64,000 bases of DNA from Promethearchaeota archaeon (GCA_030603385.1 JAUVXW010000011.1:29564-93563), one strand, 5' to 3'; shown: positions 24,001 through 34,535, counted from the first letter of the stretch. Program-made: numbers and translations. The notes: generated from the letters alone by a model not told the origin.

Positions 24001-27000
24001 TATCAGAAATCACAATTTCAGGGCTATGAGTATAATACACTGTAATCTTAAGATGATCAATACGAGCATCTGTAGCAGAAGACCCGGTATAATTTATGTA
24101 TATATCAATACCAAAATCAGCACTATTGATCTCGGTGGGAGTCCATGAAGCGCCCCACAAATAGGTTGAATTGCCATAAATGTTATAAATATCATTATCT
24201 ATAGTGTCCCATGGTGTGGAATTTGCCATATCAACGCCAACTTGACCACTTATTTTTCTAAGAAAGATCTCCCCATCTGTAATTGCAGAGCCAACAGTAG
24301 CCATTCGATCCATTTCAACTTTAATACCATTAATTGTGGCTCCTATCGGAATATTAAACCCAAAGTTTGCTAATCGTAGCCAATCTGAGCTACTTTCTGT
24401 TAAAGTGCTAAATGAAACATAGGTGTAGTCGCCATCTTGGGTTACTAATTTGCCCAGATCGTTCCAAGGTTCTTGGTCTTGGGGTGATTGAGTATAATAG
24501 ACTTTAATTTGCACATGATCAATACGCGCATCAGTATTAACAGATCCATTATATTCCACGTATAAATCAATACCAAAATCATTACTGTTGATTTCAGTAG
24601 CGGCCCAAGAGGTACCCCACAAATCGGTGGGACTTCCATATACGTCGTAAACATCGTTATCTACGATATCCCAAGACGTTAAGGTATCTGCGTAATTATC
24701 TCCCACTTGACCTGTAGTATTTCTTAAGTATAATTCCATATCATGAATTGAATCGCTTACGGTGGATCTTCGATCGAAAAGTACTTCTATACCAGTGATG
24801 GTCACTCCGCTGGTAGGGAGGGTGAATCCAAAATTTGTTAATCGTAACCAATCTGATGTAGTTTCTGTTGATGTGGTAAATGAAACATAAGTATCATCAT
24901 TGTTTTGAGATGTTGCTTTGGTAGTATCTACCCATTCTTCGCCTGAAGCATCAGGTAAGGTATAATGTATTTTAATCCGTACTAGGTCTATGTAGGCAGT
25001 ATTCGTAGTTCCTACATTTTCGACTGCGATATCAATCCCAAAATTAACATTATTTATATCAGAAACTGACCAGACACCATTCCATAGATCGGTTGAGCCG
25101 CCATAAATATCGTAGCCATCAATATCTGTTATATTCCACCAAGTACTTGTGGCTTTATCTTCTCCGTTTTGACCGGTTGAATTCCGTAAGAAAATAGAAA
25201 AATCCCTAATGGAGCTTCCTGGTGAATCTTGCTTTCTATCCATTCCCACTTCGATGCCATCAATTGTGGCTCCTACGGGAATTGCAAAATTAAAGTCTGA
25301 TAATCGTAACCAGTCCGTTTCCGTACTACTGCTTCCACCATTATCTGGTGCGATTGCGATTTGAAAATAAGCAGCACCATCTGAGACACTACAACTAACT
25401 GTAGCATCTCCAGAAGTCCCTTGAGAAGCTAAATCTTTACTGCCAAAGCAACCACTCACATCAGAATTTCCAGAAGTGTCAGTTTGATAGTCATCAACCT
25501 CAGTGAATCCAGTTCCTGAGACTTCGAATGGATACCCATCACCTCCGTCAAAACTTAACCCATAAAGCACTAAACAATTGTCTACGGTTGTAGTTACGGC
25601 TGGAATAACGTGACTATTTGAACTTGACGAAGATTGTGTAAAGCTTTTAATATTGATTGGGGTTGTATCATCAGCTCCCATAATCCTAAGGTAATATCCC
25701 ATCCACTCATCTAATCCTGCAGAAGTTACAGTCTCAGTTGGATTTTCATTCCCATCAGCAATTCGCCAGAAAACAGCAATGTGGGCATCACTGACTCCAT
25801 CACCTGAAGTACCAACGAAGTTCCAGTTCGCTTTGTTATCTGAAAAAGCAATTGATGATGTATCATCGTTCATGACAATAAGCACCAATAAATCACCTAC
25901 TTCAACTCCAGAAGGTTTACTTAATATTAGGTTTGTTGAAGGCATTGAGTCACCCTGTTCCGTCCATGATTCTATAATTGGAACACTTTCCTCACTAATT
26001 ATTATATTAGCTGAAGCATAACTATCATTTTGAGCCAATGTATTACCTAGATTTGCCCAATCTATGCTGTTACTTCTGTCTACACTAGAGGCTGTAAACG
26101 GAGACAACCAGTTAGTAGTATAGCTACCTCCACCACCCAGATTTATATTTATATTCGATGTTATTGTTGGCGATTGTGCCTCAGAATCGTCCCCACCTCC
26201 TGCGATTCTGTCCGTATTTGTTGTAGTGGATGGTGATCCTATATCAGAATCGTTTTGTTCATCGGTATAATTTAGACTTGCAAAATAATCATAATCTACT
26301 TGTAATTCAATTATCTTAACTAAATCACCATGAGAGTTAAAGATTTTTAGTACAGGAGGTAAGTTGTTTACAATATAAGGTATTCTGTGAGAATTATTAT
26401 ATGCATTGGGATTATCAACAAAGCTCATTAAGATATTATTGATCTCGCTTGAAATGTTTATAAACAAGTTGGAGATCTCAACTATATCATCAAACGTCGC
26501 AGTTGTAACTATGATTATTATTTCTTTCGACGTAATAAACATAGCATCTTGATATAGCCTAATATCTATAGGAATAAGTGTAAAATCAGATCCCTCAATA
26601 TCATAAAAAGTCGAATTTAGCTTTATACCGTTGTCTTCAAAATAAATATGATTTTGTTCAGAAACAATACTGGTAAGTGAAAAGCTTTCATAGCTGGTTA
26701 AGACAACTATTTTTGTAATATCATTATCAACAGGAAAAACTTTCAGATCTATATTAATCATACCATCTTGATCAAGCCCATATAAGACACTATTATCAAG
26801 CCCCTCTATCCTAAACTGCTCATGATTATTAAGATCTTTTACAATCCAATAACTTGAATCAGAAAGGATTTTTTCGTTATCTAGAACATCGTATCCGATA
26901 AACCTTAGAGTCATATTATCATCTCTTAGGTTAAAAATATTGAACGAAATGTCTGCTAGAGAATTTTCATCACTATAAAATGTCCCATAAGAAACCCAAT

Positions 27001-30000
27001 CTGAGGTCGTTGGAGTCTCATATTTATATTCTATGTCTACTTTATAGAAGTCGGTGTCTGTAGAGTTAATTGCCATTGTTACTATATTATCCTGAACATT
27101 ATCATAAGTCTTTCCTAACACCAATGTATAAGGATCTCCCGAAAACAAGGTCATTTGAGGGGGGTTAATATCTAAAATAGTGTGATTCAGGGTATAATTA
27201 TAAAGGCAAGAAGAGAATCCATAGCTAAGATTTGCTTCGATTATGAAATTAATATCATAATTATTTGGATTTAATCCCTTCGAATTTACCCAATCTGATA
27301 AGGAATCTAGATAAATAAGCCAGTGATCAGAAGTGAGATCATCATAATTTACTCTTGCTAGAAAATCAATATCATTAGAATAATTAATATAGACATCTAA
27401 TGAACTTAGATGATCTTCAAAATCTATATTTACACCAATTTGAGAATTATGATTAATCCTCCCTTCATTATCCACATAGGTGAAATTTATAAGTTCATCA
27501 AAATGGTCGATTTTAAAATAAGTGCTATATGAATCATATACATAATTATTAATATCATCTATAGCTTTTACTACAAAATACCATGACTCGTTATCAGGAA
27601 TATTCCAGCTCGTGTTAATATAAGAATATAAACCATCATCAGGACTAAATGAAGCATCAAATGAGGCAAGCAAAATCCACGCTTCAGGAGTAGGATTCTG
27701 TAAGTCTGGTTCCGTTCCAGCTAAGAAAAATTCCAATAGCTCGATAGGTTTTCCAGTGCTGTTACATTCAAAATTTAACCATCCGTCAATCGTCTGTCCT
27801 GAGACTGTTATAGGTAGCCAACCACCTTGTCCGTCTTCTTGTGAAACTACAACATCGATTGCAAGATATGGTCCACCGCTATGACTTTCGATTTCAGCAT
27901 CTGAGATAGAGCTGTTAAATACTGAAATGTCATCAAGGCGACCTGTGAAACATGAATATGTAGAAATTTCAGCACCGATAATAAGGGCTCCTCCCCCTTT
28001 AAGCGTGCCGCCACTACTCCACGGTTCTGCGGTCGCTCCTATTGCTTCTCTACACCAAGTATCACCAATAAGAACATCTACATCATTTCCACTGTTATTA
28101 TATCTAACAGCTATAAAAGTCCATGTATTTAGGGCAATTGCTCCAGGAAACCCATATTCTGCTGTAGCATTCACAGTATCGGCTATAATATGGACTTGTA
28201 AAAAACCAGTCTCATTAACTCCTAATTCTATTACTCCCGATTTTGAAAAGAAGCAATTTCTAATACCGTTTACACTTTGATTTGAAGCAAATGCAGTTGG
28301 ATATACCCAAGCCGTAATTACAAATTCGGTATCAGAAACACCAAGGGTACTGTCTAATATATCACCGAAATCTACATAATCGAAATTTTCATAGGACATG
28401 CCTCCCTCTTCGGGGGGTTCCGATTCAAAGGCTATCTTCATACCATCCAAATTCGCTTTGGAAAGGTCCAAGCCTGACCACGTAAATGTATGCCATGCTG
28501 GGGTACTGCTCATATCCAGTTGTCTTGCTCCTAACCATGATCCACAATACACATTCACCGTTGAGTCTATATCAATTTCTTTCCCATACACCTTTATTTG
28601 TATTTCAGTAACTGAACCGCTTGAAATATCGAATGTATTCATAAAGAATTCATCCGTAATATTGTTTGATGCGATGCTAGAAGTATAAATATAGTCGTTC
28701 GTATCCAGAGTCGTCTCGTTTATAAGATCAGCATGGTCTCCTGTATGTGAACTCTCCCATTCTGTGGTAACATCGCCGTCTGGATGGGAAATACCACTAT
28801 CTTGCGTTGGTGTACTTTCGGTATAGTACACTTTAATTTGAAGGTGATCGATACGAGCACTGGTATCAGATGCTCCAAAATATTTTACCGAAATATCAAT
28901 CCCGAAATCATTACTATTAATATCCGTGACTTCCCATGTATCCCCCCAAAGGTAGGTTGAATTACCATAACTATCATACGAATCATCATCAATATCATCC
29001 CAATTACTACTAGTATCTGCTTCATTATTCCCTACTGGACCGCTTGATTTTCTTAAGTAGATTGCATCATCTTTAATTGTGGTCTGATTGGCTCGTCTGT
29101 CGATTTGAACCTCAATACCGTCAATACTAGCCCCTGTAGGTATGCTAAAACCGAAGTTATTTAACTGTAACCAATCGGATGTATCCTCGGTTGAGGTAGT
29201 AAATGAAATATAAGTATCATCATCATCTTGGAAGGCTGCCTTACTAGTATCTTGCCACTCTTCTCCAGAAGTTCCACCACCGGCACTATTAATAGCAACT
29301 TGATAACCAGCCATACCATCCCCAACTTGGGCAGTCACAATTGCTGTTCCAGAACTGCCGGTAGATGTCATATTCTTATATCCAAAACTAGCAGAGACAT
29401 CAGAATTTCCAGAAGTGTCAGTTTGATAGTCATCAACCTCAGTGAATCCAGTTCCTGAGACTTCGAATGGATAACCATCACCACCATCAAAAGCGTTAGC
29501 ATATATAATTAAACAATTATCCTCATTAGTCGTTACACCAGATATTGAGAGTGGAGAACTTGAGCTTATAGAATCACTACTAACATCTTCAATAACATCA
29601 GATGTATTTACGCCACTTATCCGTAAATACCACATACCCCATTCGTCCGAAGACTGAGCTGTCACCGATTCATATGAATCCTCCGTGCCATTAGCTACAC
29701 GATAATACATGCCTATATGAGAATCTGAAATCCCATTTCCTACTTCTGTCACTAAAGTCCAACCAACCTTATTATCAATAAATTGTTGCGTAGTAGATAT
29801 GTCATCATTAAAAGGAATCAGAACAAGTAAATCCCCGGATTGAACACCTGGAGGCTTATCACATGTCAGAATCGAACTGGCGCTTGTTGAGCCATCTACT
29901 AGCATTGATTCTATAACCGGAACACTGCCACCGCCACTTCTCTCAACATTTGAAGTGGTTTGAGGAGACTTTATTGAGTTAGTCTCAAGATAATACTCAT

Positions 30001-33000
30001 AAGAGACATTCGCATAAGCATTATAAATTGTCGTACCAATAGTTTCGCCTGAGCCACCCGTTACCTGCCCATCACCATCAAAATAAAGCCCGTAGTCTCT
30101 TTTACCGATATCCCAAGATGTACCTCCTTGTATAAGCCCTTGATAATTGTGAATGAGGTCGTAGGTGGACGTCCCAAAATTCTCGTCAAATTCTGCCATA
30201 AAATCTAAAGAACTAGAAGGCTCGGATTCAGAATAGCTCGCCTTTAGTAAGTCATAGAGATCATAGGGCCAATCAGGATAACCATCTCTATTCTCATCAA
30301 TAAAGAAACGGCGCCCAAATATATCAGATTCAAGGCCAGCGTATTCCTCATGCGAGAGGGATTTATAGAATTCATCGCCTTCATGTTCAATTTTTACCAA
30401 TAAATTCTGCTCTATTGAACCATAAACTGTGTGGTTGAGGTAAAACTTACCATCTTTATCGGTATTTAAATTCGTAATTTTAGTATACCGATCATTGTCT
30501 TCAATGAAAAGTTCGAGATTATCTAATTGAACAGGCTTATGGAGAGAATTCACAATCTGCCCATCGTACACTATGTTCCAGCAGAGTTTTCCATCTATTT
30601 CATATTCAAACGTGTATACGGCACCATAGTTGAATCCATCTTCTAATGGTTCCGAAAATCGCTCATTTGAAAGGACTTCTAATGCATCTTTTTCGATTAC
30701 TATTTCATATGTTTTGGGTAAAGCAGATCGAAATCCAAACCCGGTTAATTCGCCATAATAGACTTCAACTTTATATGTTCCTGGTGCCAAATGTAATGTA
30801 TTAAGTGGGACGTGAGTCATCATTATATAGTCTTTTCGTGGACCGTTTACATAATCGGAAGATAACTCATAATATTTTTTTAAACGATATCCTTCTATTG
30901 ATGGTACATCTTGAGGGATAAATCGCACTCGTACATGCGAAGCTGCACCAATAGACGGTGATATTTTACATTTTATTACAATTTCATCATTAATAGACAG
31001 CTTATCAAGATCTTCGAGAAAAGAGGAATATTCCAAAGTTGTGAAGTCTATCGATGAAGGGTGAAGTCTTTGTTCTGGTGAGACTCTCGCAAACTCGAGG
31101 TCTGGAGAATTAATAGATGAAATGGAATTTACTGCAAAAATTAAAGGAAAAACGGTAAGGAATACCACTACTAATAATGCAGAACGAGCAATTTTATCGT
31201 TATATGTAAATAGTGTTTTCCTTGATTGGCTTCTTCTTTGTTTTTCTTTTTGTTGAGATCGTAAATAACGTCTAATAAAAGCTGTGCTTTTGAAAGTAAA
31301 AAGAAAAATTGCGGCAAATATACATCCATAACATATCAGTTGGAACTGTGGTGCTAAGACAAACACTCCAACAAATGCAATTGAGATGAGAAATAAGAGC
31401 GTCCATAATACAATAAACTTATTTTTATGATAAGCTCTTGCCCCTTTATATCGTATGTCATGTGCAAATTTTCTAATTGACGCATTTTTAACACTCTCTA
31501 ATAGATGTGATTGTGTTTTTTTAGGAATGATTTCAGGGGATTTTCTACTCAAGAAATAGCATATACAAATATTGATGATTGGAAGTAGCTGAGCATATTC
31601 TATCATCCCATTAGTGAAAAGTAGATAACCTATCCATGGTAAGGGGAGAAAACTTAATGGTAAAAATAATACCTGCCGTCGTCCTAGTAGCCTCCACCCA
31701 TTAAAGAATATGTAGGAGAAAAAGGAAAGTCCAACTTGTATAAGGAAAAACAGAAATTTTATGTCTTGCGGGAAGAATATCGTAGAAGATGGTGTGAAAT
31801 ATAATAAAGTAAATAAAAACAGTCCAAAAATCGATAAAAAGATTCCAGCATATTTTACCTTATTTTGAGAAATTGTTGTTTTAATTTGATGAAGACGATC
31901 TTTTAATGTGGAGTGTGTTAGCTTTTTGGCTTTAGATTTAGTCTCTTCGCTTTTAGCTGCTTTATAGCGCCCTAATTTTTTCGTTAAAATTCCAAAAATC
32001 GATAGAGTGATCCCTAGGTTTATTACTTTTTTTTGAGAAAGCTTTGCTTTAATTTGATGAAGATGGTCTTTTAAAGAAGACTTTTCCAAATTTTTGGTCT
32101 TAGATTTAGTCGTTATTTTTTTAGCGGTTTTATAGCGTTCTAATCTCTGCATTAAGATTGATTCTACAGTTCTCCTATGACGGGCTAAAGTGAGAACGTG
32201 TGAACCGTGCTTTACTTTTAATGGAGTTAATTCATTATAAAGATCCTCTCTTAGTTTATTTCGTACTCTTGGATTTTCGTTTTTGCCTTCTCCTTTAAAA
32301 AACACTTTTAATTTCTCTTTTTGTTCCTGTAAGAAGTTGTATTCCCCTTCTGACAATGTTTCTTCAAGGTTTTTGCTATATTCTATTTGAGTGAGTGTTT
32401 TATATTTCTTCTCGATCTTTTTAAAAATAGCTCTAAATTTCTTGATGACTTCATTGGAGTATCCTTCATTTTTTAATATTGAACTATATCCATTTTCATT
32501 TCTCATAAAATGGAATACGTCATTTAGGATCTCTTTTTCAAATTCGATCTCTTCTATAATCCTTAAGAGATCACTAGTAAAAGAATCAGAATACCCGTGT
32601 TTTTCTAATAAAGATATATTCTCGGATTTATTTTTTAAGAATTTAGTAATATTAATTGAGTCTGTGAAGTTTAGTAGATCTCTCGCCTTAGCGTAAAGAG
32701 CTTTTTGGGATTCTGGAAGTATGTATTCCTTCCCTTCTACAATGATAACTCCAGAGAAGATTTTCTCTAGCCGTTCTCTCCAGAAGTTTTCAATAGCTGT
32801 TGAAAATTCCCTATAGGATATTGTGTGAAAATTTAGAAATTTCTTACTATATTTCTTTCCATATAATTCTAGAGTTTTAAGATATTTATTACTATATCCT
32901 AATTTCTTAAAGAGATGTCTATATCCTTTCCTCACATGGGCAAACTCAACTACATCTACATCGTTCTTATAATCTAATAAGATAACTTTAAGGCCTAGAT

Positions 33001-34273
33001 GTTCCTTAATGAATTCATCTAATTGCGGACCATAAATCTTCTTGACGTGTTCCCTAACTTTTCCATCTTTCTTCTTTAATTTTCTGCGCCCTGAAAGGTC
33101 TAAATTAGATAATCTTTGTGATTCTTCATACTTTCGAAATGATATTCTTTGCTGCCTTCGAACATATGAAAGATCAACATAGGAATCAATCTTATCTTGT
33201 TTAGTCCCCTCAGAGATGGCAATACTTTTTATATTTGGTAAATTATCCTTATATTTTACTGGTGTTTGAGGGATATAATCTTGAAAAAATGATTTACGTT
33301 GTTGTTCATATTCTTTCTCCATGTTATTAAGGAGTTGAATTAATCTTACTATATCCCCATGATAGGTGTTTACGAATGAAGGTTTAAGTCTCTTACTTGG
33401 TTTTTCTCCAAACACAGTATTAGTTCTCTTTTTTTCTACAACTTCTTCTTGTAAATTTTCTTCTTCGATTGGCTTCTCTTTTTTGATTTTAACCCTACTT
33501 AAGCTAATTATTACATAAAGATCGTATTTATAGATAGGGTGCGAAAAAATCACAAGGAATATGAAAGGGGTAAATAGAAAATTTAAAGGAATAGTAAAAT
33601 AGAAAGAAATAGTACAAATAGCTGTAATTATTCCTGTAATTACTGTAAAGAACTGCTTTGAGCCGGTTGCTATATTTCCTTTACTCCCATGTTTGAATAG
33701 ATATAATTCATAAAAAATTAAAGTGAACAATAAAAGAAATACTACCTGCACTTGAGAGGCTGAAATAAATAAAGACAGGTAATGAATATACCAAAATGCT
33801 GAGAGTGAAATATATTTGAGAGCCTTTAATGTTATAGTATAGCCCTTATGCGCACGAGAAAATAGTGGTCTTATGCGCGGCGGTTTTGAATGAGTATTTC
33901 TTAATTTTTTAACAACATCAAAGTAGTAAAAACCACCTCTAATCGAGCAATATACTGACATCACAAGAAAAAGGGGGATTAATACATAGAGCGAATCATT
34001 CAGCGGGTTAGCATAATAGAAGAAAATAAGAAGTCCTAAAATAAAGGGAGTAAGATATAAGATAGCTAATAAAATACTCCTCATTATTAGAGATCTTTTT
34101 CTTTGATCTTTTGAAGTTACTTCTTCTTTGCTAATTCCTTCCCTTTGTATCGAGACTTGTGTCTGCGTTAATCTAGAAGAAGTAATCTGATTTATTTGAT
34201 TATTACGCGTACTATGACCATGTTTCGTACGTTCTATATCATATTCTTTTGGTCTTTCTTTATTTCTACTCAT
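1..34273 (-). CDS. Giant membrane-anchored surface protein, at least 11,424 aa, 3' end outside the window
   Basis: ATG at 34273 (MSRNKERPKEYDIERTK...) with GGTGA just upstream, overlapping the stop of the preceding ORF. Hand translation of long stretches is open, and the same frame reads ...DYQNKIMVDYWVNCEFVQDYD at bases 2-64. Any internal stop would have put the upstream part in the ORF track, and no listed minus ORF here is in this frame. Confidence 0.95.
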   Translation of the reverse strand, partial: MSRNKERPKEYDIERTKHGHSTRNNQINQITSSRLTQTQVSIQREGISKEEVTSKDQRKRSLIMRSILLAILYLTPFILGLLIFFYYANPLNDSLYVLIPLFLVMSVYCSIRGGFYYFDVVKKLRNTHSKPPRIRPLFSRAHKGYTITLKALKYISLSAFWYIHYLSLFISASQVQVVFLLLFTLIFYELYLFKHGSKGNIATGSKQFFTVITGIITAICTISFYFTIPLNFLFTPFIFLVIFSHPIYKYDLYVIISLSRVKIKKEKPIEEENLQEEVVEKKRTNTVFGEKPSKRLKPSFVNTYHGDIVRLIQLLNNMEKEYEQQRKSFFQDYIPQTPVKYKDNLPNIKSIAISEGTKQDKIDSYVDLSYVRRQQRISFRKYEESQRLSNLDLSGRRKLKKKDGKVREHVKKIYGPQLDEFIKEHLGLKVILLDYKNDVDVVEFAHVRKGYRHLFKKLGYSNKYLKTLELYGKKYSKKFLNFHTISYREFSTAIENFWRERLEKIFSGVIIVEGKEYILPESQKALYAKARDLLNFTDSINITKFLKNKSENISLLEKHGYSDSFTSDLLRIIEEIEFEKEILNDVFHFMRNENGYSSILKNEGYSNEVIKKFRAIFKKIEKKYKTLTQIEYSKNLEETLSEGEYNFLQEQKEKLKVFFKGEGKNENPRVRNKLREDLYNELTPLKVKHGSHVLTLARHRRTVESILMQRLERYKTAKKITTKSKTKNLEKSSLKDHLHQIKAKLSQKKVINLGITLSIFGILTKKLGRYKAAKSEETKSKAKKLTHSTLKDRLHQIKTTISQNKVKYAGIFLSIFGLFLFTLLYFTPSSTIFFPQDIKFLFFLIQVGLSFFSYIFFNGWRLLGRRQVLFLPLSFLPLPWIGYLLFTNGMIEYAQLLPIINICICYFLSRKSPEIIPKKTQSHLLESVKNASIRKFAHDIRYKGARAYHKNKFIVLWTLLFLISIAFVGVFVLAPQFQLICYGCIFAAIFLFTFKSTAFIRRYLRSQQKEKQRRSQSRKTLFTYNDKIARSALLVVVFLTVFPLIFAVNSISSINSPDLEFARVSPEQRLHPSSIDFTTLEYSSFLEDLDKLSINDEIVIKCKISPSIGAASHVRVRFIPQDVPSIEGYRLKKYYELSSDYVNGPRKDYIMMTHVPLNTLHLAPGTYKVEVYYGELTGFGFRSALPKTYEIVIEKDALEVLSNERFSEPLEDGFNYGAVYTFEYEIDGKLCWNIVYDGQIVNSLHKPVQLDNLELFIEDNDRYTKITNLNTDKDGKFYLNHTVYGSIEQNLLVKIEHEGDEFYKSLSHEEYAGLESDIFGRRFFIDENRDGYPDWPYDLYDLLKASYSESEPSSSLDFMAEFDENFGTSTYDLIHNYQGLIQGGTSWDIGKRDYGLYFDGDGQVTGGSGETIGTTIYNAYANVSYEYYLETNSIKSPQTTSNVERSGGGSVPVIESMLVDGSTSASSILTCDKPPGVQSGDLLVLIPFNDDISTTQQFIDNKVGWTLVTEVGNGISDSHIGMYYRVANGTEDSYESVTAQSSDEWGMWYLRISGVNTSDVIEDVSSDSISSSSPLSISGVTTNEDNCLIIYANAFDGGDGYPFEVSGTGFTEVDDYQTDTSGNSDVSASFGYKNMTSTGSSGTAIVTAQVGDGMAGYQVAINSAGGGTSGEEWQDTSKAAFQDDDDTYISFTTSTEDTSDWLQLNNFGFSIPTGASIDGIEVQIDRRANQTTIKDDAIYLRKSSGPVGNNEADTSSNWDDIDDDSYDSYGNSTYLWGDTWEVTDINSNDFGIDISVKYFGASDTSARIDHLQIKVYYTESTPTQDSGISHPDGDVTTEWESSHTGDHADLINETTLDTNDYIYTSSIASNNITDEFFMNTFDISSGSVTEIQIKVYGKEIDIDSTVNVYCGSWLGARQLDMSSTPAWHTFTWSGLDLSKANLDGMKIAFESEPPEEGGMSYENFDYVDFGDILDSTLGVSDTEFVITAWVYPTAFASNQSVNGIRNCFFSKSGVIELGVNETGFLQVHIIADTVNATAEYGFPGAIALNTWTFIAVRYNNSGNDVDVLIGDTWCREAIGATAEPWSSGGTLKGGGALIIGAEISTYSCFTGRLDDISVFNSSISDAEIESHSGGPYLAIDVVVSQEDGQGGWLPITVSGQTIDGWLNFECNSTGKPIELLEFFLAGTEPDLQNPTPEAWILLASFDASFSPDDGLYSYINTSWNIPDNESWYFVVKAIDDINNYVYDSYSTYFKIDHFDELINFTYVDNEGRINHNSQIGVNIDFEDHLSSLDVYINYSNDIDFLARVNYDDLTSDHWLIYLDSLSDWVNSKGLNPNNYDINFIIEANLSYGFSSCLYNYTLNHTILDINPPQMTLFSGDPYTLVLGKTYDNVQDNIVTMAINSTDTDFYKVDIEYKYETPTTSDWVSYGTFYSDENSLADISFNIFNLRDDNMTLRFIGYDVLDNEKILSDSSYWIVKDLNNHEQFRIEGLDNSVLYGLDQDGMINIDLKVFPVDNDITKIVVLTSYESFSLTSIVSEQNHIYFEDNGIKLNSTFYDIEGSDFTLIPIDIRLYQDAMFITSKEIIIIVTTATFDDIVEISNLFINISSEINNILMSFVDNPNAYNNSHRIPYIVNNLPPVLKIFNSHGDLVKIIELQVDYDYFASLNYTDEQNDSDIGSPSTTTNTDRIAGGGDDSEAQSPTITSNININLGGGGSYTTNWLSPFTASSVDRSNSIDWANLGNTLAQNDSYASANIIISEESVPIIESWTEQGDSMPSTNLILSKPSGVEVGDLLVLIVMNDDTSSIAFSDNKANWNFVGTSGDGVSDAHIAVFWRIADGNENPTETVTSAGLDEWMGYYLRIMGADDTTPINIKSFTQSSSSSNSHVIPAVTTTVDNCLVLYGLSFDGGDGYPFEVSGTGFTEVDDYQTDTSGNSDVSGCFGSKDLASQGTSGDATVSCSVSDGAAYFQIAIAPDNGGSSSTETDWLRLSDFNFAIPVGATIDGIEVGMDRKQDSPGSSIRDFSIFLRNSTGQNGEDKATSTWWNITDIDGYDIYGGSTDLWNGVWSVSDINNVNFGIDIAVENVGTTNTAYIDLVRIKIHYTLPDASGEEWVDTTKATSQNNDDTYVSFTTSTETTSDWLRLTNFGFTLPTSGVTITGIEVLFDRRSTVSDSIHDMELYLRNTTGQVGDNYADTLTSWDIVDNDVYDVYGSPTDLWGTSWAATEINSNDFGIDLYVEYNGSVNTDARIDHVQIKVYYTQSPQDQEPWNDLGKLVTQDGDYTYVSFSTLTESSSDWLRLANFGFNIPIGATINGIKVEMDRMATVGSAITDGEIFLRKISGQVGVDMANSTPWDTIDNDIYNIYGNSTYLWGASWTPTEINSADFGIDIYINYTGSSATDARIDHLKITVYYTHSPEIVISDNRFAVDLPELLEGDEICSIEAVKLNTSSYEFSYFKDAQNEEIFITLITQHDLDGLYDYTNPISIDFGVSNASHYSNQFKGSYNFTVLPQDNYTFVGEFFDISGVVSTYAISQPITIDYHGPQIYRQFDTNTTINPESGAISFYISDFSDVSTYYFDTTISGYWNTIDNIYTFYFNDASLSEGLKNIKLICNDTLGYISEYPFAIIIDKSAPIFNNVQVNYAYGNNLFEINATLTESSEYSISIECLHLSSGTIAPDFELTIIEIGEDQWQILIDTNWLQNGYYNITLIATDAAGNFNIYILENIYIDNSCPVVELIEEHIYVDNENIYNSTVVDTIYFNDNKNLTISAFDTVYDGFDWSQIDQTIADQLGIKNITFYYTNPLAWYNISIIGSLNYEQFIYEIDGYGDYFSSTQYIKSIQSIKIGDYTIDKFTILLDGTSLLLYIDPQYRYALSPASTRHIYAQFYELVDDEIVLQFSNNAKKWELLSSGRSCFNISDYLSLSEGDNFLFWLEIEDGMGNVLVSHKYEGYYDNVILKNDDYSLFNWVLGTNSTGSGIIIFGSDNYEDSTIHIDTSSILPDINGDSDAHRILVYGSSDEVNWDFVGRAYFSGEDDIWNYYWDGDYLKSIDKLPPENYFLKCLVFDKSGNYLDFNGSYCGTYSFGNEDVGNSGIDIDFIDATTLYTCEIESGDTIHSKILHLYEDDGAWNQGRNYFDAIGSGTVEFYVKCGETDERHRFMLAGATVGPMIYFHDTGYITAYYSTTHHNTRTYAADIWYHIRIDFECGTGEYEGLAADTYFLYINGSKYGPYNFWEIQSDISSWLYDPGGIAGGNAFVDAISYSWDEQYSIGENNYEFGYSPIKTYDYTQIKLISDLVFGNIFEYNSSLFSNENEIEGYIENYFGTTNLWDVIAQYYNPIEKEWVKMQTDPATILTNGSYSITWDINEDASFMASMYNFSYEYLPLQAAPLDNADLWGSWGLFGNSNEWQPIIISEASSDLDISIYKFDDQTGWTLDSSLSDEGTIASIQDQVFKLWDINKDSIYEIIRISSSQIDVIYLNDNLDWVIKENVTQLSGYNYITFDVEYDGSTTNSVMLTVQQDSSEAFSLWKYYFDTDYDLTYLVDCHAPLNFIPTSVEFVNYFSATDRKAILVGGLIEGSYYSQLFEYDFNLEIKNVIEDSVLGKILVIEYDEINGVDSIILGIERLAIGKMDAVIALRRKSGTEEWTDFEITGFDDIKFKIIDLFAIADNNLRKLLIASETGVFQTTITYLEDTTSIVSPVCFVSEVLGKQDLLPIYYPVITPKKTPIYMVNKITYKLNGDNNWYDLDIDKYRVSRTEIRLDLNSIWSNLAFAKVAYSFESFVGGEKTSIDPSFKNQNGTSDTQTISASGLFYSDISLPLLWLNPATSYESPIANWNWLPNSLTYQYTPVISGLGSTAIYPEVNSEWSSEYMMPELENSLIYYGDSYDSGMLAQNLNAKDDYLGETMFDGSFEGNYIDGAWISNPYISENFNFSQMYYSEIHDETSSGLYNFDGEQRILVENSLVNIEPDNSQVALIYDSGTLPSSLSAEYLTDIDYPDQDSGWDDGNFLNTHTDDSNYIRLSTDWTGYGYTYFGFFEMDIPYDGDDFYFSFHATSSYKPCELKINGQRLYYDTEIDFDRELITDVNYITFDFGDQFTGFSADVFYFKLERVSSNNPAVQGASLAEMKSVFSNWSQYMTTEKDENGIFGFEFTYKLPVISKESLEEIQVSFDASIYSLSFTQEYPLSLQLWNFEYNRWESLPVAPLDGNDYYYTDGLDLDFWGGHPTSAYTDDDMFRPKWGTTSLNDINTIGYGKCFPSTMDDSGNIVFDDSVLAGGSFLNNDDTSKQINTLFLDQSELITDEDYKVLFYDTDYNTNKFQLGNIIIDPATPYTKEYNDFPAYQNGFSFDANSEFYGNFINDLHEFKIHLITNRESGQVDNAYLCVGDFKTYTLTDTNYLNYDEFESNAIGTHHVSDDIDFTSNGIELYGYSGFNLKEPERTEKFRDNFRTSTWDLFGTSQDTIIFEKDIIDAAIARSLHPTTNYNIDNLSTYRHTYVGDHQSNTASIVEGSLVAGTDIYDTHEDDSNSMGITSEYFPIFNQRTKTRYSNLVITKTFDLYYDITSSFLTQIQIYLGDTDSPVHLIASTDGVQISLSGWTRVENNDPNLDYIWVMSSSIFIHQIDVDWLTSYDVIEEIEAFIITPDLIEYLALGSNDIWELEATITDGGTSLLLYSVEGFNADTITWEHRPYTHALLSFSPAYGQTFTLDLGAVKSTKSYFKIDTETLHYGVDYWNPKVKYQLAKRHQEPGLLYMQSDESESLSLKSQVYSKNISVTPNDQIVIEFKPKTSNEINFTLYCDGEVVQIFTIVPQGNNDFSSQFIILETSETIQFDQLMFSGTLDDTNYLSVSSISVLEGANIIDTQLSPYDYVEESYKPYIETGTPLTSSWFAHFEDGQYYNISSNLKSTIQEVFVEFEFSVPKSETVDMNKMGINLKGFATSASLEGATFKVRNLNSSLYEDIDYILRNVDTFSFSILEDQFYKFDDGDFYTISFKIGLIASSEFVVHIDSLNIFTYKPWSVEHDLYRASFVFEPVGTGQNETDYVSVFVNDNINITIYDDLLDFGDNVISFYYNPNEQKWHGYFYNNTYNDFTDLLNIADSEFTAPKLKIESHYGDTDKGIIVKSIESQYYTQIRNEQDFAKYKSLIASYKAVDGHADVLELDADDRLLNAENTFAQISADVDIIYSFHDEMEHENIFEYELLPTFAVGSYDNLESYIYDETGFILDSATGLSDSYVTDFYGDAVKTLGDLNPDIRDNDSVTCDFKVAWAQRSYQSSSYTVEAEVNNPPYTSGPQDEAGWSTREDDGKERVYWAEVVYTNEDWVRYSDYYHFALANYPLPYYPADVDVEAKIHWGFRPDRGTSYLVWQNTFCKIYAKRWSSGVYEEIAEIPYEELTELTLDLDQAYYLYVGPGMPPTYIYKIDLKIVTQVWCYNLGNPSLQVTLDYLYVDEKGYQNDPNNAKVGFNFDSLLNGQNDFIVNFDGWTDTWDGSEYTGGYYTSYFYVNDNIEHTFSYDDSNGFSGFFANIDSLMALVVADAQGLDGEAYDRRLLIDYLYLEWLNQPVNITLKNDKIINVTSSLSHKQQNPAPIDSGLYDDPYFGKNSIHFTLKNSIQTPIFGRENDIIWADLELSDLELDFKVYPDTNKPLENNNIEGNNETKYVPAILGNYTEYSTSRFRHSASDDIQIPLLTPIQLDFGQIDLAMYERGILELALELDIDLDNRASDSTWSLRSRLLYYNYTSGYWEDFKGMIRIESQDYNRAVWDPVTFSDNFIDYLQDFRVSNNIIPILNDNDINVKNPFTINNLNNNTIKDGVMKLAFLSYIIPSNISIDPDSNNFVYERMNPEIPIEISQTVDVIDCVFIGESRQVMYPEASLTANLELDENFRANLSLIDNLGEILAVKGILSEDSVVYEYPIYYYWTTQDNELAFNSPMKYQFTNVSIEYIPQLILTYNSSDGYWYLPGSFVSGDINYTKPFFVSDLWVNNTHYGTYIHPDVNVWYTIGSNDYGMFVDFTNATHLDSIVKGTIHFGKVDDTSLYRFSLKDETLLRNNILPNPSDFVGGTLHLEFNTGFKDVIHSELSQVLCGDYVLKVSLYELDMGRNELSSIGTLEKVLDTNYLGFHYYELELSFDEIDYVEGGEAVLAETFTRDASSDLYITLEVMISECSVDGNLFKGMFAHELLYANIEMESQDSVYLYNEESIEGPYFTIAQNGIILTQVDITSYIFESSDLEYKYNFEIYSLYAGAEILREHIDYSFDQDQKVITLIGPYKGYNGYLIANIIYYAFEWHEGMISSLSPVTLTFQYDYVKNITKFMELIIQYSEIPGFQFENIDLNSGRLVFSDETKSSSLLKIYLYNYRENRWDESSFVCYDDYTGTNTFSYIVDRNFLMFENYFNETETGDFEIKAIFTIEGDNDESFLSKAGFSITSIAANMYYDTPKTEAKVTPEVIFDVDLTEYYTDSDIYLEEITLSLDYFGELEFDDSFIFSQYMLLEENYNVYIRNEYLDFEEFSLENDEITLSREQIDRFIYHDIENEKYFIRAKLEYDWNCILEMNLGSNSKLEVLSTLNLFKYDLTAAYTSYETTRISAQKVNIAYDLAEIFAPNYYETDGSIEVLENDEETDIGILGGFLRNSATKQRLMVRQELLYNFTEGSKNIVIDREYTDAILKFLIPYGFITSPTDYITNTTRLTFISDSDVKLIEVYYHDGNDYQKKGDMTQDEDNRCKFDFIWTNAAGDTGASSGEGIKIMFNITDILGNNGQYKYILIADFDDPTPEITLENGTENYQNDQVAGPETSIDFNSGEQEESSISQPYSYEDPFTSYDSQYMSYTPSPDDYSSIWNMDALYMQSLFPTTSSSEAWGGWSLNYNSDDTYSTFNDGDLNSEILGANYDVPEQPADFSFSKGTLQSQGNLADYGDTYSTFRSTSVPSWYNSGWAYRKAITLKSDWISSTFTNFPFYFSVWDTGITIYAQFDGDDILFTASNGITKLDHEMEHYAGGGSGHIRAWIRIPTLPSTGTTIYIYYGNPTCGNQQNIEGVWDSNYVLVEHFEESSGATIDDSSDFDNDLTVVGPNLDVTGFLGRDSDGVYFDGTNDYLYRADDSDFDFGTGDFTVSCWFKTSKTAFEALVSKTSSSANLGWSLDKNANHDIRLILRDSGSYVAYATGTFDNDVWYHVYGRRSGDNLKVKVSEAISGTDTGVDNVDVSSSYELRVGDRYYSHQYFSGYMDEVRISKVARSDSWLWSNYQNQVNPSNSYTKGAKESVPYGELSFTVNAELTGVESGDSVVAQLKYSYKNAESVPVTLSIYNHAQSNWNTVIDDTVYSSFSQHTYDITSDYYDASYNLQFKFEGSSILNQFDFYLDQFKIDYFSWSPTGDLYADISKTISETFLNRYDSGFSNYKKLYNISVEFNYRFTKDNSLLDDFAQFTIDGNDYTLTKDGSWHIFSDTIEFDSTSKNGFDLMFNISNGLLELDNMKYTYTFKCLDSSDQILLQQDFEIDFPEEDELLNLRNFLNMDYLLYTSYSFNPTLDELTYYNTYGRANKLEIIFKIKADGVWHDTALLYALNSAETDVYSFNITQYMRDNKLNTFQDFAVEYVLIGNSSELTVNYVTLSCTTSLKQIQEYYRIIDNTMGSVSEWVKFDSSDISILDDLGDLPENFTIEYKVIDFAGNECINSTYNDNYQHIIFSREKFISLTNDSIDLNSLDTIDREISFADNNQFNHLDYLDAYINGFKYGTAYLENGFYRLSFGSENSYETLIAYSDSLTSNYIYSNTNPINHVSWEVRDSDFFGVVKHVLVDGDIVITNPLTYNTNCTLEIEHIYDRGYMLQNYARIREAFYYNTSSGDNEIIYLALMIDFVVDNNGVVTFPEGSRLHDLYNNPSKVKDSLIYFNYDASPFYDQLQLSNADGFFINFTMPAIYYEHTTIGKLTVSFHDFTGKTFSKVYWDIDLRKYFLESIRDQYEIEIFGLGKMMSIPLYIDLNELAFSNPGTPFDLSLLESITITISDSELWPGSFLQEVGEYSVLNLPYQRVGILDFTLYNLISDDITPDENGHVQSTVMFISPDYYDLFAQAPFNITRLDIEFTNLKMYNDGTEIAGEYYATYSFEDELGETGADIDFVDTYYAAEDCSVSIISELDGHKDVLQMNDQSDTGRTYIFQQFSSSLDNTIEFWLGSSWNPDYTYRNAYIYIDDDGTNLAFLMLTGPAFRYYNGSTDITISSFNQDTLYHIRIDFDDTANTYDVYVNGILEVSDIAYLNPSTEGIDRIRLYTRDYNSGYKIYFDAIGFSHDLNYDIGDNRYPYAEVEYSDFIELNYRWNDSLSPVILNDLIKIPVNLINASSGEILSFDVASWITKHDKDSLSGYYSKYYYSRFEVPKLLGDFDITFGSFGTPIHNIHFGDFKEVGMWNLGDEGKAYDVVNRNHGIVSGNPQLVDGKVGKAVRFDGSGDYYNLGNPEELQITGSQTICMWLYPEDFSQRRNPYAKAYGGEGTITQEMSGTLSYYYGTAGVNAQPYQGFGSSQTIPLNDWSFICVVRNLENMRLYWYIDGELTNEVDALYSAATTSSLSAYIGQGYAYDYQGKIDGVRMYDSALTEDQVKWLYNEGDGQIDPLNDIRCKINVTQESLFASGPIYLQETTYELEYGDSLMLKGAVLDNDEYIVEDRVYTYRYQEALDGTTVHHLDFESPFNDDTFIDKEEFAIYYVSNIDNDNDTLEILPLYSTLNGKYFKNKTILDFNKDPYISYIDNAFLLNIYWDSQSQAFINYDTELLISYKVLNGRPIAPISFSSLDSYGNDNRDYLVEIPFARYDMLNRSWVTEDDFIEEFSIDKKLLYEDVESTGAVLQGAEYYDGQLIQTGVIAFEGIYVNWSNSDIFELLDDSQYDWSINVNGELSIADLPYSSGDVFRVIYYSVNPTPIIHSINSLVSSVNYIQVENSTGFKYNFELGTDYIISADGYRIYFKDLYNTILKSGNFSLYDRFEINYHTSLARKIDLSQNLLLTLQDSEGNDIPIDTVPIDSIGLFEYDQPLREDGTLSIPLGGGKKLVHMCLKYLPSNIFNKSAGQLMDIDYNGSDFGKIYPYKESNAWAKPFTVITIPKKVKLEMIEDPSQNILINQRFYEEREYVFNYNPAEALENGEEYTKVSIDALVRENYTFTFKLTDFKDKPINNSIVWLHIGFMPKSKTEFLNTRTVIDDLGISPYFESLGTEEITSRGPGEGPSKMFGRPLLYELNNYSTGYSAYGPYMFIFGRTDEFGEVDFDMSFNSDYLEDFVDIFGNLEGINSIEDMILYIRAFSTYFDWDDFAIDTPDQYLCSTDENVFDGSTKLPNYNFDDLAIQDSTYVEGLIRLHKGDIILGVHDYLSYNLPDSDLGDDYDPLTLHLYVNEADPIPSTTSTTLESLIKVYSSSELEAQSGDILSDDYRYHAIIEFYTPSGTLVETKYMEIQEGYDSGFIEITNDYDQLEILLTALGPGISTIKVYVAESEYYKKSPVVIVPLEIRPPNWIKFGEKNTQIDLINPFISAWGTAYDNEVEMPFESNYPHLIGSIWVEPDFMGTSDEIERSIQDYIEINLDCTIYNDDGTTSTFPLENNIMLRPGNHDGILTFKTGLGPENAFLMGLQCDLNLSFNINFNKDEIYEDLRNVEIYLLDLRLEANPSSSTPNTTWSIYDDGVYFNDIITVDKEGLVEEETGILYLGGTENGQIYGQEIALLFSNETLDYGIDADSELLSLLALVEIDALRIKGRKDGDEYEFVQDIDWIMPYNPSGSLHNDSIIRFIGSKLPDSGSEFSIAYKLKFDFTGKIFGNVTLGYLGQLKTYNESSIELRLPQGFLPASNSSYSPMYTRFIESCDGATADYIMPYGKLSATLSDFIIYNEEELEKLNDNNPIDKNLDNNHLKILFSQAPGTEFNVIYGVKSQYTLSYGFQKINRSYSDSVRLMYNDSSSSKIIDGSDNELFSCDLDDLSLYISLDNSNDTTSLKLFNVPLLYAPEINLNFTLDHTVLDLIDTFDNDFNNLTIEFKYITNDGFYEFYSDPIVIPLDYSDLSPDIVNNIYSIQYYKDLQAIYDMVGADTVDIEVILHHEGDSSNYIPYIILESFDYVADEHIVENYDRAPLNRQGKFLTKSAINTPHYYQVFSQPFIDGTPYGDSPFELIDGSEVTIGLQGLPNATLVSVNSDGEDYEFGFLGTSETLLVNDTNFYMIPNLGMFIDTYNIEEPLYQDGFLDLYYGSGTQIDGEKQYTSSIFMDYEGDFIPDYRSNINNYKSTSWEDTYNFVYQFLTTDRITASGRAFYHQIFDLDVDTNSSSVMNDIFPNYEGNIYFGLQLPEDFEVDEIRTVGLPYHYALSVQGFPIGKYMDDYCEVQTGYSGAFTPSEQTLEFPLDFALEFDENGTAYILSFRPIGDLSSYTDYQNKIMVDYWVNCEFVQDYD
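5465..6075 (-). other. Intact LamG domain within the giant protein
   Basis: GKVGKAVRFDGSGDYYNLG...TICMWLYP...WSFICVVR...YIDGE...YQGKIDGVRMYDSALT. Confidence 0.88.
6375..6990 (-). repeat. ConA-like module, copy 2 (YATYSF...TIEFW...YHIRIDF...YFDAIGFSHD..Y.IGDN)
   Basis: Clear paralogue of 21445-22050. Confidence 0.75.
9480..10490 (-). other. DUF2341 plus LamG module within the giant protein
   Basis: WYNSGWAYRKAITL...NFPF...DDILFT...KLDHEME...AWIRIP.L...TTIYIYYGN, then HFEE...YFDGTNDYL...DFTVSCWFK...WYHV...FSGYMDEVRIS. Confidence 0.85.
21445..22050 (-). repeat. ConA-like module, copy 1 (YCGTYSF...GTVEFY...WYHIRIDF...FVDAISYSWD..YSIGEN)
   Basis: Clear paralogue of 6375-6990. Confidence 0.75.
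24035..26255 (-). repeat. Three copies of jelly-roll-like domain A plus one copy of domain B, nested
   Basis: Conserved DWLRLxxFxFxxP..(A/V)TIxGIxV..DR...YG..TxLW...W....IN..xFGID...IDxx.I..(Y/H)YT at ~25325-24960, 24945-24490 and 24475-24035. Confidence 0.9.
25458..25534. repeat. 77-bp exact repeat, copy 1
   Basis: acatcagaatttccagaagtgtc...gacttcgaatggata is identical to 29397-29473. Confidence 0.95.
28820..29990 (-). repeat. Fourth copy of domain A containing a second copy of domain B (VPVIES...KPPGVQSGDLLVL...)
   Basis: Same motifs as the 24-26 kb copies. Domain B at ~29925-29283 is paralogous to ~25985-25350. Confidence 0.88.
29397..29473. repeat. 77-bp exact repeat, copy 2
   Basis: Identical to 25458-25534. 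Confidence 0.95.
31120..34273 (-). other. N-terminal polytopic membrane region of the giant protein: two TM clusters flanking a ~500-aa Lys/Arg-rich soluble region
   Basis: Hydrophobic segments at ~34080-33500 (ILLAILYLTPFILGLLIFFYY etc.) and ~31860-31120 (GIFLSIFGLFLFTLLYF ... ALLVVVFLTVFPLIFAV). The sequence between them is basic and everything downstream is acidic. Confidence 0.8.
31808..32143 (-). repeat. Diverged 168-bp (56-aa) tandem duplication in the giant gene
   Basis: LERYKTAK...LKDHLHQIK..LSQ..V...GI.LSIFG followed by LGRYKAAK...LKDRLHQIK..ISQ..V...GI.LSIFG; starts at 32143 and 31975. Confidence 0.9.
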
Positions 34274-34535
34274 TATTTTCACCTTTCATTTCTAATCTGA
34301 TGAGCTGATTAATTTTTTTAATATAAATTGAAATCCTTTCAGGATGATACTTAATTTGATTAAAGTATCTTTTTAGCTGATTTTTGGCTATTTTGCGCAG
34401 GTTAGGTTTAATAGACCTGATAATTAATTGGAAAAATTCTTTATCAGAAATGTTATCTAATTCTAAACCAAGATCTTTCCTTGCAAAACTCTTTGTAGGA
34501 AACTCAATATGTGGTCGAATACCGGCAATTGCCAT
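34266..34535 (-). CDS. Small basic hypothetical protein, probably translationally coupled to the giant gene
   Basis: ORF track 34266-34583. The likely start is ATG 34535 after GTGA. Its TAG stop overlaps the giant ATG by 8 nt. Confidence 0.75.
   Translation of the reverse strand: MAIAGIRPHIEFPTKSFARKDLGLELDNISDKEFFQLIIRSIKPNLRKIAKNQLKRYFNQIKYHPERISIYIKKINQLIRLEMKGENNE

Follow-up and report, generated by a model that had tools for sequence, protein, structure and literature searches.

The window analysed here is a stretch of 64,000 nucleotides from a Promethearchaeota archaeon (GCA_030603385.1 JAUVXW010000011.1:29564-93563), and it carries on the minus strand a giant open reading frame (ORF; 2..34282) that begins at position 34282 and runs beyond the window start, with the first 11,427 amino acids inside the window. 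In contig C3 the frame extends over 14,832 codons without a stop. Several hydrophobic membrane segments lie within residues 1-200 and are followed by a long ectodomain in which Pfam families are very few, the matches outside the N-terminus being one Big_3_3, one DUF2341 and Laminin_G_3. The host is an Asgard (Promethearchaeota) archaeon and the giant is a surface protein anchored in its membrane; more distant homologues carry the labels Odinarchaeota and Hodarchaeales. The present analysis concerns one of its LamG domains, whose two pieces are separated by 562 residues at the loop between the motifs FDG and DYV, and the layered set of domains that fills this gap.

The LamG domain and its interrupted loop

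All features of the giant described below lie on the minus strand. The N-terminal piece of the LamG domain (LN; 30068..30265, amino acids 1340-1405) ends in GLYFDGDG, the FDGDG itself being amino acids 1401-1405 (30068-30082), and it is followed by the outgoing linker QVTGGSG (30047..30067, amino acids 1406-1412), which was read directly from the sequence. The chain resumes with the return segment MSYENF (28382..28399, amino acids 1962-1967), a part of the native LamG loop comparable to ILIENF in the uninterrupted orthologue of genome G065, and with the C-terminal piece (LC; 27851..28381, amino acids 1968-2144), which reads DYVDFGDIL at its start, DYVDFG occupying amino acids 1968-1973 (28364-28381). 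A first-pass annotation of the window had placed the two motifs about 560 residues apart and had described the other two LamG copies of the protein as compact. Both statements are borne out: the count is 562 residues, and the other copies read FDGSGDYY (amino acid 9445, 5927-5950) and FDGTNDYL (amino acid 8093, 9983-10006). In the region 9413-10405 (amino acids 7960-8290), a DUF2341 domain (PF10102) immediately precedes the intact Laminin_G_3 copy, which occupies amino acids 8094-8243.

The relationship between the two pieces was evaluated with a custom hidden Markov model (HMM) of 251 positions, built from ten relatives whose N-terminal region runs on directly into the Pfam part. The native sequence gives two matches to this profile, one over amino acids 1335-1407 (hmm 2-76, 81.5 bits) that identifies LN and another over amino acids 1960-2144 (hmm 66-249, 257.6 bits) that identifies LC. 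When amino acids 1406-1967 were deleted in silico, a single match covering hmm 2-249 with 358 bits was obtained; the deletion proposed in the first-pass annotation does restore one full-length LamG match, provided that the profile includes the N-terminal strands. The Pfam model of Laminin_G_3 (PF13385) also recognizes LC, with 44.4 bits against a gathering cut-off of 27.6, over profile positions 5-150 of 151 and amino acids 1968-2131, and its coverage in the uninterrupted orthologues is 5-150 in two of the three and 3-150 in the remaining one. Because this model starts at the DG of FDG, its position 1 corresponding to D9446 of FDGSGDYY in an intact copy, split and uninterrupted copies show similar coverage and PF13385 is uninformative as a deletion test.

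Alignments of the relatives point to the same single interruption. MAFFT misplaced domain fragments in rows without flanking context, and only flank-anchored alignments were used; in those with about 110 residues of flanking context per row, the uninterrupted relatives receive one gap, which extends from amino acid 1405/1406 to 1962/1968. LN is contiguous with the C-terminal half in L048, L037, L033, P0014 and other proteins, and the uninterrupted relatives have 1-7 residues from FDGxG to DY. Identity to the orthologues is 48-69% for LN and 51-69% for LC, regardless of what the loop contains, and the N-terminal piece, as conserved as the C-terminal one, is therefore not decaying. The two host pieces are thus homologous, in order, to both parts of a contiguous LamG domain. 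Judged by its sequence, this is one LamG (ConA-like) beta-sandwich that is encoded discontinuously, split at one loop by 562 residues.

Structure models of the region were also obtained, with AlphaFold2 runs on amino acids 1230-2200 (36-row alignment) and on LN, B and LC of the orthologue in G003, in which the loop holds a single domain, here called B (35 rows). In the first model, B reached a predicted local distance difference test (pLDDT) score above 90, the modules that follow it, A1 and A2, about 85-90 and 70-85, respectively, and the LamG C-terminal half about 80-90. The second gave confident models of B and of the upstream immunoglobulin (Ig)-like domain, and both LamG pieces were poor. 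With Foldseek, the model of the C-terminal half matched PTX3 (E 8e-5, TMt 0.55, 159 columns), and VIA, applied to this low-confidence model, returned Z values of 7-8.5 over 130-150 residues for the PilC lectin module, the CBM40 of NanB, serum amyloid P (SAP) and PTX3. These structural alignments enter SAP at about residue 18 and the thrombospondin N-domain (TSPN) at about residue 48, so that nothing in the C-terminal half corresponds to the first strand or strands of the fold. In addition, domain 4 of AbnA, a weak sequence match, has 66 residues before its EFxITxW strand, compared with about 20 in the C-terminal half. A search of PDB sequences with the profile of uninterrupted LamG domains found nothing at E <0.01, AbnA domain 4 being at E 0.012 and PTX3 at E 0.21. 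Overall, the models are consistent with LN as the source of the missing strands, and we infer from the sequence and from the comparison of loci that the two halves would reunite in three dimensions. The conserved domain just upstream of LamG (residues 4-87 of the G003 model) is a confident Ig/macroglobulin-like sandwich, with VIA Z values of about 8 to macroglobulin domains and to SlaB of the Sulfolobus S-layer.

Several observations weigh against the split. By Pfam boundaries the cargo sits at the very edge of the domain; in the model of amino acids 1230-2200 everything before B, including LN and two orphan segments, had a pLDDT of 20-45; LN was not packed onto LC in either model, with pLDDT 20-45 and 4-10 alignment rows over LN; and structural matches to LamG folds never took in LN. 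It could therefore be argued that LN is a separate small element preceding Laminin_G_3 and that the cargo occupies a linker between tandem units, a view favored by the restriction of PF13385 to the C-terminal half, equally in uninterrupted orthologues, by the unpacked LN and by VIA matches that begin at LC. However, in intact copies of the same protein FDG aligns to the first positions of PF13385, the gap from FDGxG to DY is just 1-7 residues in uninterrupted relatives, LN is conserved to the same degree as LC, and LC would lack both the first strand of pentraxin/LamG folds and most of the residues that precede EFxITxW in AbnA domain 4. On this balance we consider it quite improbable that no domain is split.

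Explanations of another kind would be a chimeric assembly, an intein or the recent acquisition of foreign DNA, and the only observation in their favor is the composition of the region, with a G+C content (GC) of 0.40 at 28-30 kb against an average of 0.34 for the gene. This excess lies at codon position 2, owing to the Gly, Ser and Thr content, and GC at the third codon position (GC3) is equal in insert and flanks, on which ground recent foreign DNA was rejected. An assembly artefact was rejected on the unbroken frame of 14,832 codons, and an intein on the absence of Pfam matches in the insert, which gave no Hint, intein or other Pfam family at E up to 1, and on junctions that consist of Gly-rich linkers. 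Moreover, the same architecture occurs in independent metagenome-assembled genomes (MAGs) and metagenomes, and explanations of this kind appear exceedingly improbable.

Organization of the insert

From N- to C-terminus the insert consists of a short N-terminal arm (pre1), an A1 head strand, a GGG hinge, domain B, a second GGG hinge, an A1 body and an A2 body. The arm, ETIGTTIYNAYANVSYEYYLET (29981..30046, amino acids 1413-1434), is a putative N-terminal arm that would go with A2. The putative orphan A1 head strand, ending in KSPQTTSNVERS (29936..29980, amino acids 1435-1449), fits the head motif of contiguous A1 units. The hinges (29927..29935, amino acids 1450-1452; 29273..29281, amino acids 1668-1670) enclose B (29282..29926, amino acids 1453-1667), a self-contained beta domain of phage type that forms the innermost cargo. 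The A1 body (TSGEEW to KVYYT; 28817..29272, amino acids 1671-1822) is a beta-sandwich without its own head strand, and the A2 body (PTQDSGISHPDGD to FESEPPEEGG; 28400..28816, amino acids 1823-1961) is a second beta-sandwich module. No family was found in Pfam or PHROGs for B, A1 or A2, nor for the cargos C, D and E of related loci.

The first-pass annotation had described the insert as a domain A containing a domain B, the latter bracketed by SPQTTSNVERS-GGG (amino acids 1439-1452) and GGG-TSGEEW (amino acids 1668-1676). The bracketing is as described, with 215 amino acids for B, and B does lie between the A1 head strand and the body with the W motif. Domain A, in turn, is not a single domain: this part of the insert comprises two different beta-sandwich modules, A1 and A2, together with two short orphan N-terminal segments.

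Domain B is an autonomous fold. It forms B-only proteins of about 230 amino acids, with dozens of matches starting at residue 2 and some on contigs of about 1 kb, and a metagenome-wide search also found it at the N-terminus of longer proteins; A1 and A2, like B, occur outside LamG. Its pLDDT exceeds 90 in the two AlphaFold2 models. The best match in BFVD is a viral protein of 236 amino acids (TM 0.80, root-mean-square deviation 2.4 A, 29% identity, E 2.6e-13), and the model resembles many tailed-phage proteins of 200-260 amino acids, mostly uncharacterised, a few of which are listed as minor tail proteins. In a language-model atlas, the neighbors of B are mostly Uroviricota clusters.

A1 belongs to a wide family in which contiguous units open with a head of the approximate form KSPGTxAN-D..GG..W.NP.NA. 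In the insert, GGG-B-GGG comes between the head KSPQTTSNVERS and the W motif, at a site that corresponds to the native Gly-containing loop of A1, and the A1 body enters the profile of contiguous A1 units at hmm 31 (145.8 bits). A cluster of homologues that have 11 A1 units in tandem carries the annotation DUF2341 domain-containing protein.

A comparable arrangement exists elsewhere in the giant. The insert matches a second region, at amino acids 2766-3459, with 43-49% identity, and A1 body paralogues lie at amino acids 3113-3421. This region belongs to a paralogous nest near 24-26 kb (24023..26245, amino acids 2680-3420) with one B paralogue and three A1 bodies, which can be read as two orphan heads, an innermost A1 holding the second B copy (B2) in its second loop, and two headless A1 bodies. 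The proposal that the docking loop is reused is sustained by this comparison, since the A1 loop that holds B is also the one in which A1 is nested within A1, both at 26 kb and in other genomes. In five nests there are as many orphan heads as headless bodies (1:1 in the present insert, 2:2 at 26 kb, 3:3 in G024, 0:0 in G069 and 1:1 in P0006), and the giant has three instances of the motif SP.T..[NS], each of them at a nest head, compared with a mean of 0.43 in shuffled sequences. A second insertion loop of A1, after the NDSYAS strand, holds either a domain of about 155 amino acids without assignment, as in L044 (G069:C36, amino acids 343-498), or B, as in the giant itself (amino acids 2766-2978, 25349-25987). 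The same guest, found in the head loop and in the second loop of A1, can therefore use two different loops.

The outer layer of the insert concerns A2 and its putative arm. After the cargo, A2 homologues (G045, G069, G024, P0002 and others) always resume with PTQDSGI.PDGD, and pre1, with the motif ETIGTTIYNAYANVSYEYY, is present in every split LamG seen with A2 (this giant, G045, G069, G024, P0002, P0004 and P0006) and absent from LamG slots that hold B, C or E alone. From the motifs, the co-occurrence of pre1 and A2 and the counts of heads and bodies, we infer an order in which, most likely, LamG contains A2, A2 contains A1 and A1 contains B.

The points against this order concern the orphan segments. 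The A1 head adds only 5.3 bits to the score of the body, compared with 0.9-2.7 bits for shuffled heads, and the containment of B by A1 thus depends mainly on the head-to-body parity and the motif. One A2 homologue (G018) starts its protein without pre1, and no clear equivalent of pre1 was recognized in uninterrupted A2 homologues; since A2 can lack the arm, pre1 may act as an adaptor strand that A2 does not strictly require. The chief rival reading of the inner levels accepts the split LamG and does away with nesting inside it: pre1 and the heads of the SPxT..N type would zip together, or with the return segments, to build a two-layer beta stalk, and A1 and A2 would follow in tandem along the return path. 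Besides the A2 of G018 and the small contribution of the head, this arrangement would accommodate tandem A1 arrays such as that of P0036, which have no head strand between units, and orphan segments that have no confident model. On the other hand, in many distant homologues the head of contiguous A1 units immediately precedes the W motif, the orphan heads equal the headless bodies in all five nests, and pre1 and A2 co-occur strictly in the split LamGs seen, which makes a zipped stalk unlikely, and nested modules the preferred description of the insert.

Contents of the loop in related genomes

Homologues were searched in 54 genomes of the genus and in 16 other genomes of the order. Matches at E <=1e-10 were present in 15 of the 54, and none of the 16 gave a match at E <=0.001. 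The loop could be read in ten LamG loci from eight genomes. The comparison of orthologues suggested in the first-pass annotation has a clear outcome: within the same flanking context, three loci have an uninterrupted loop and seven bear cargo in it, with five or more different cargo sets. The uninterrupted loops read FDGTG-T-DFVNW (G060:C95), FDGDG-ILIENF-DYVDF (G065) and FDGDG-NIANENL-DYIQF (G007a). In G003 the slot holds B alone, between FDGDG-NLGDSG and RGLTYEDF-DYIGF, and A1 and A2 were not found there with our insert query. An unrelated module of about 395 amino acids, C, is placed between Gly runs in G014 and G060:C135, and in G045 it follows the pre1 arm and GGGG and precedes GGEGG and the A2 body. 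A second LamG copy of G007 (G007b) contains a module of about 300 amino acids, E, and two loci of G024 contain nests of 1,200 and 1,547 residues. Cargo always enters one to a few residues after FDGxG, and the chain returns at xYE(D/N)F-DY, the second half of the native loop; the junctions, most of them Gly-rich, agree within about two residues among loci. The flanks are recognizable on both sides in most loci, and only weakly for the second LamG copies of G007 and G024.

Some of these loci deserve description in their own right. The larger nest of G024 (L032, G024:C13:88500-100000, amino acids 330-2050 of the locus frame) belongs to the orthologous giant of a different species, with a frame of 20,619 amino acids, whose LamG is split by 1,547 residues. 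Its insert consists of a pre1-like arm, three orphan heads, an innermost A1, three headless A1 bodies and A2; the innermost A1 holds an unassigned cargo of about 650 amino acids in its second loop, and a second split LamG follows directly. Cargo C, about 395 amino acids long and with a two-fold repeat inside it (VSNWH..., ...FIIAVPL), occupies the LamG slot in three genomes (L046, amino acids 297-692; L031, 375-778; L047, 258-663). Genome G060, with a contamination of about 4%, encodes two giants with similar flanks, on C95 (L048) and C135 (L047), with frames of 12,779 and 12,456 amino acids, which may be true paralogues or may come from two strains binned together. Cargo C is present in the giant on C135, and the LamG slot of the giant on C95 is uninterrupted.

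Beyond these genomes, the metagenome-wide search found contiguous LamG domains in P0009, P0014, P0025, P0052 and P0060 and LamG domains split by 300-900 residues in P0002-P0004, P0029, P0037, P0046, P0053, P0063 and P0065. MAGs labelled Odinarchaeota and Hodarchaeales likewise contain split LamGs with pre1, A1 and A2. A homologue search with an uninterrupted orthologue gave two matches only, within the length band searched.

The two B copies of the giant are 63% identical in DNA, yet they share an exact tract of 77 nucleotides (29397-29473 and 25458-25534), which probably marks a recent event of gene conversion between the nests. Moreover, the B of the G003 LamG slot is 75% identical to the 26-kb copy and 53% identical to the LamG-slot copy of our giant. 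According to the mechanism that we propose, the chain would leave LamG after FDGDG through a Gly-rich linker, cross the 562 residues and return at YENF-DYVDFG to complete the sandwich. The loop serves as a cassette slot that, among the loci of the genus with shared flanks, is uninterrupted or holds B alone, a module of about 395 or about 300 amino acids, or nests up to six or more levels deep, and cargo would probably be exchanged by homologous or microhomology-mediated recombination between paralogous modules. Such a slot may project variable heads, probably binding ligands or cells, sideways from the stalk. Taken together, a split LamG with a layered insert, a cassette slot and the display of binding heads is the best explanation of the locus as a whole, and we consider it highly probable. 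A broader proposal, that both the FDG/DYV loop and the A1 head loop are recombination-serviced slots through which binding modules, some of them shared with tailed viruses, are swapped between species and paralogues, is put forward tentatively, as a possibility that we would not yet favor. If it were true, cell-surface recognition in the lineage closest to eukaryotes would diversify in a combinatorial, branch-building manner.

Elsewhere in the window, and unrelated to the LamG split, a type IIG/Eco57I-like fused restriction-modification protein (N6_Mtase, Eco57I, HSDR_N_2) is encoded on the minus strand at 46517-49144.

Function and relation to known systems

The best reading of the slot, reached by analogy with RTX adhesins, is that it displays putative binding heads, which is suggested by a stalk with side branches, Gly-rich hinges, cargo that varies between species and a tip of phage type. 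Cultured Lokiarchaeia have no ordered S-layer and instead carry complex surface proteins on their protrusions, which have been suggested to mediate cell-cell contacts in syntrophy (PMC9834061). Such complex surface proteins in place of an S-layer fit the display of binding heads (PMC9834061).

These findings indicate that surface proteins may diversify, within one genus, through swaps of entire domains at the fixed loops of a scaffold domain and not through point variation in one binding site. For studies of protein evolution and design, the loci provide a natural series that extends from an uninterrupted slot to one guest, unrelated guests and nests of four to six or more levels, and this series supplies practical boundaries for the expression of B, C, E, A1 and A2 as separate domains in ligand screening.

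With regard to its components, the locus resembles known families. The C-terminal half scores above the Pfam cut-off for Laminin_G_3 and has pentraxins and CBM40 as structural neighbors, with a model that can be superposed on PTX3, SAP and the CBM40 of NanB, whereas ordinary Laminin_G_3 members, among them two copies in this protein, are uninterrupted and have 0-7 residues from FDGxG to DY. Domain B has the same fold as tailed-phage proteins of about 200-260 amino acids (BFVD A0A2Z4QGS8 and many labelled uncultured Caudovirales), with TM values of 0.70-0.82 along the full length of the phage protein and up to 29% identity. Those proteins are free-standing or form a domain of a longer protein, whereas B is at the center of a nest in a cellular surface protein.

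The closest functional parallel is found in RTX adhesins, such as the RTX adhesin of Aeromonas hydrophila, FrhA of V. cholerae and MpIBP of M. primoryensis, which are likewise giant fibrillar surface proteins. In these adhesins a beta-sandwich of the stalk is interrupted, ligand-binding domains emerge sideways and the cargo differs between species (PMC12077191, PMC10865825, PMC5550230). However, the present host is archaeal and anchored by N-terminal membrane segments, its fold is LamG/ConA-like instead of Ig-like, and its insert is several levels deep and larger than the host; RTX adhesins are taken as a functional analogue and not as members of the same family.

As to nesting, insertions of the type A1-B1-C-B2-A2 have been described in Si3 of the cyanobacterial RNA polymerase beta-prime subunit, with up to six levels (PMC13114784, PMC11515920). 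In both systems like domains are inserted recursively, one within another, at a fixed loop of their common fold (here A1 in A1), and in both the N-terminal pieces are stacked before the center and the bodies follow in order after it. They differ in their folds, in the extracellular context of the giant, and in its heterologous host, LamG, and heterologous cargos that share slots. A survey of domain insertions found that inserts are generally smaller than their hosts (PMC13114784), a size rule to which this locus runs contrary, with an insert of 562 amino acids in a host of about 245. No paper combining LamG, Asgard archaea and domain insertion was found in the collection of papers searched. 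Overall, inserted domains, deep nests and the split domains of bacterial adhesins have all been described before, and the contribution of this locus is a clean series of states at a single loop within one genus, together with a heterologous nest of four levels that is larger than its host.

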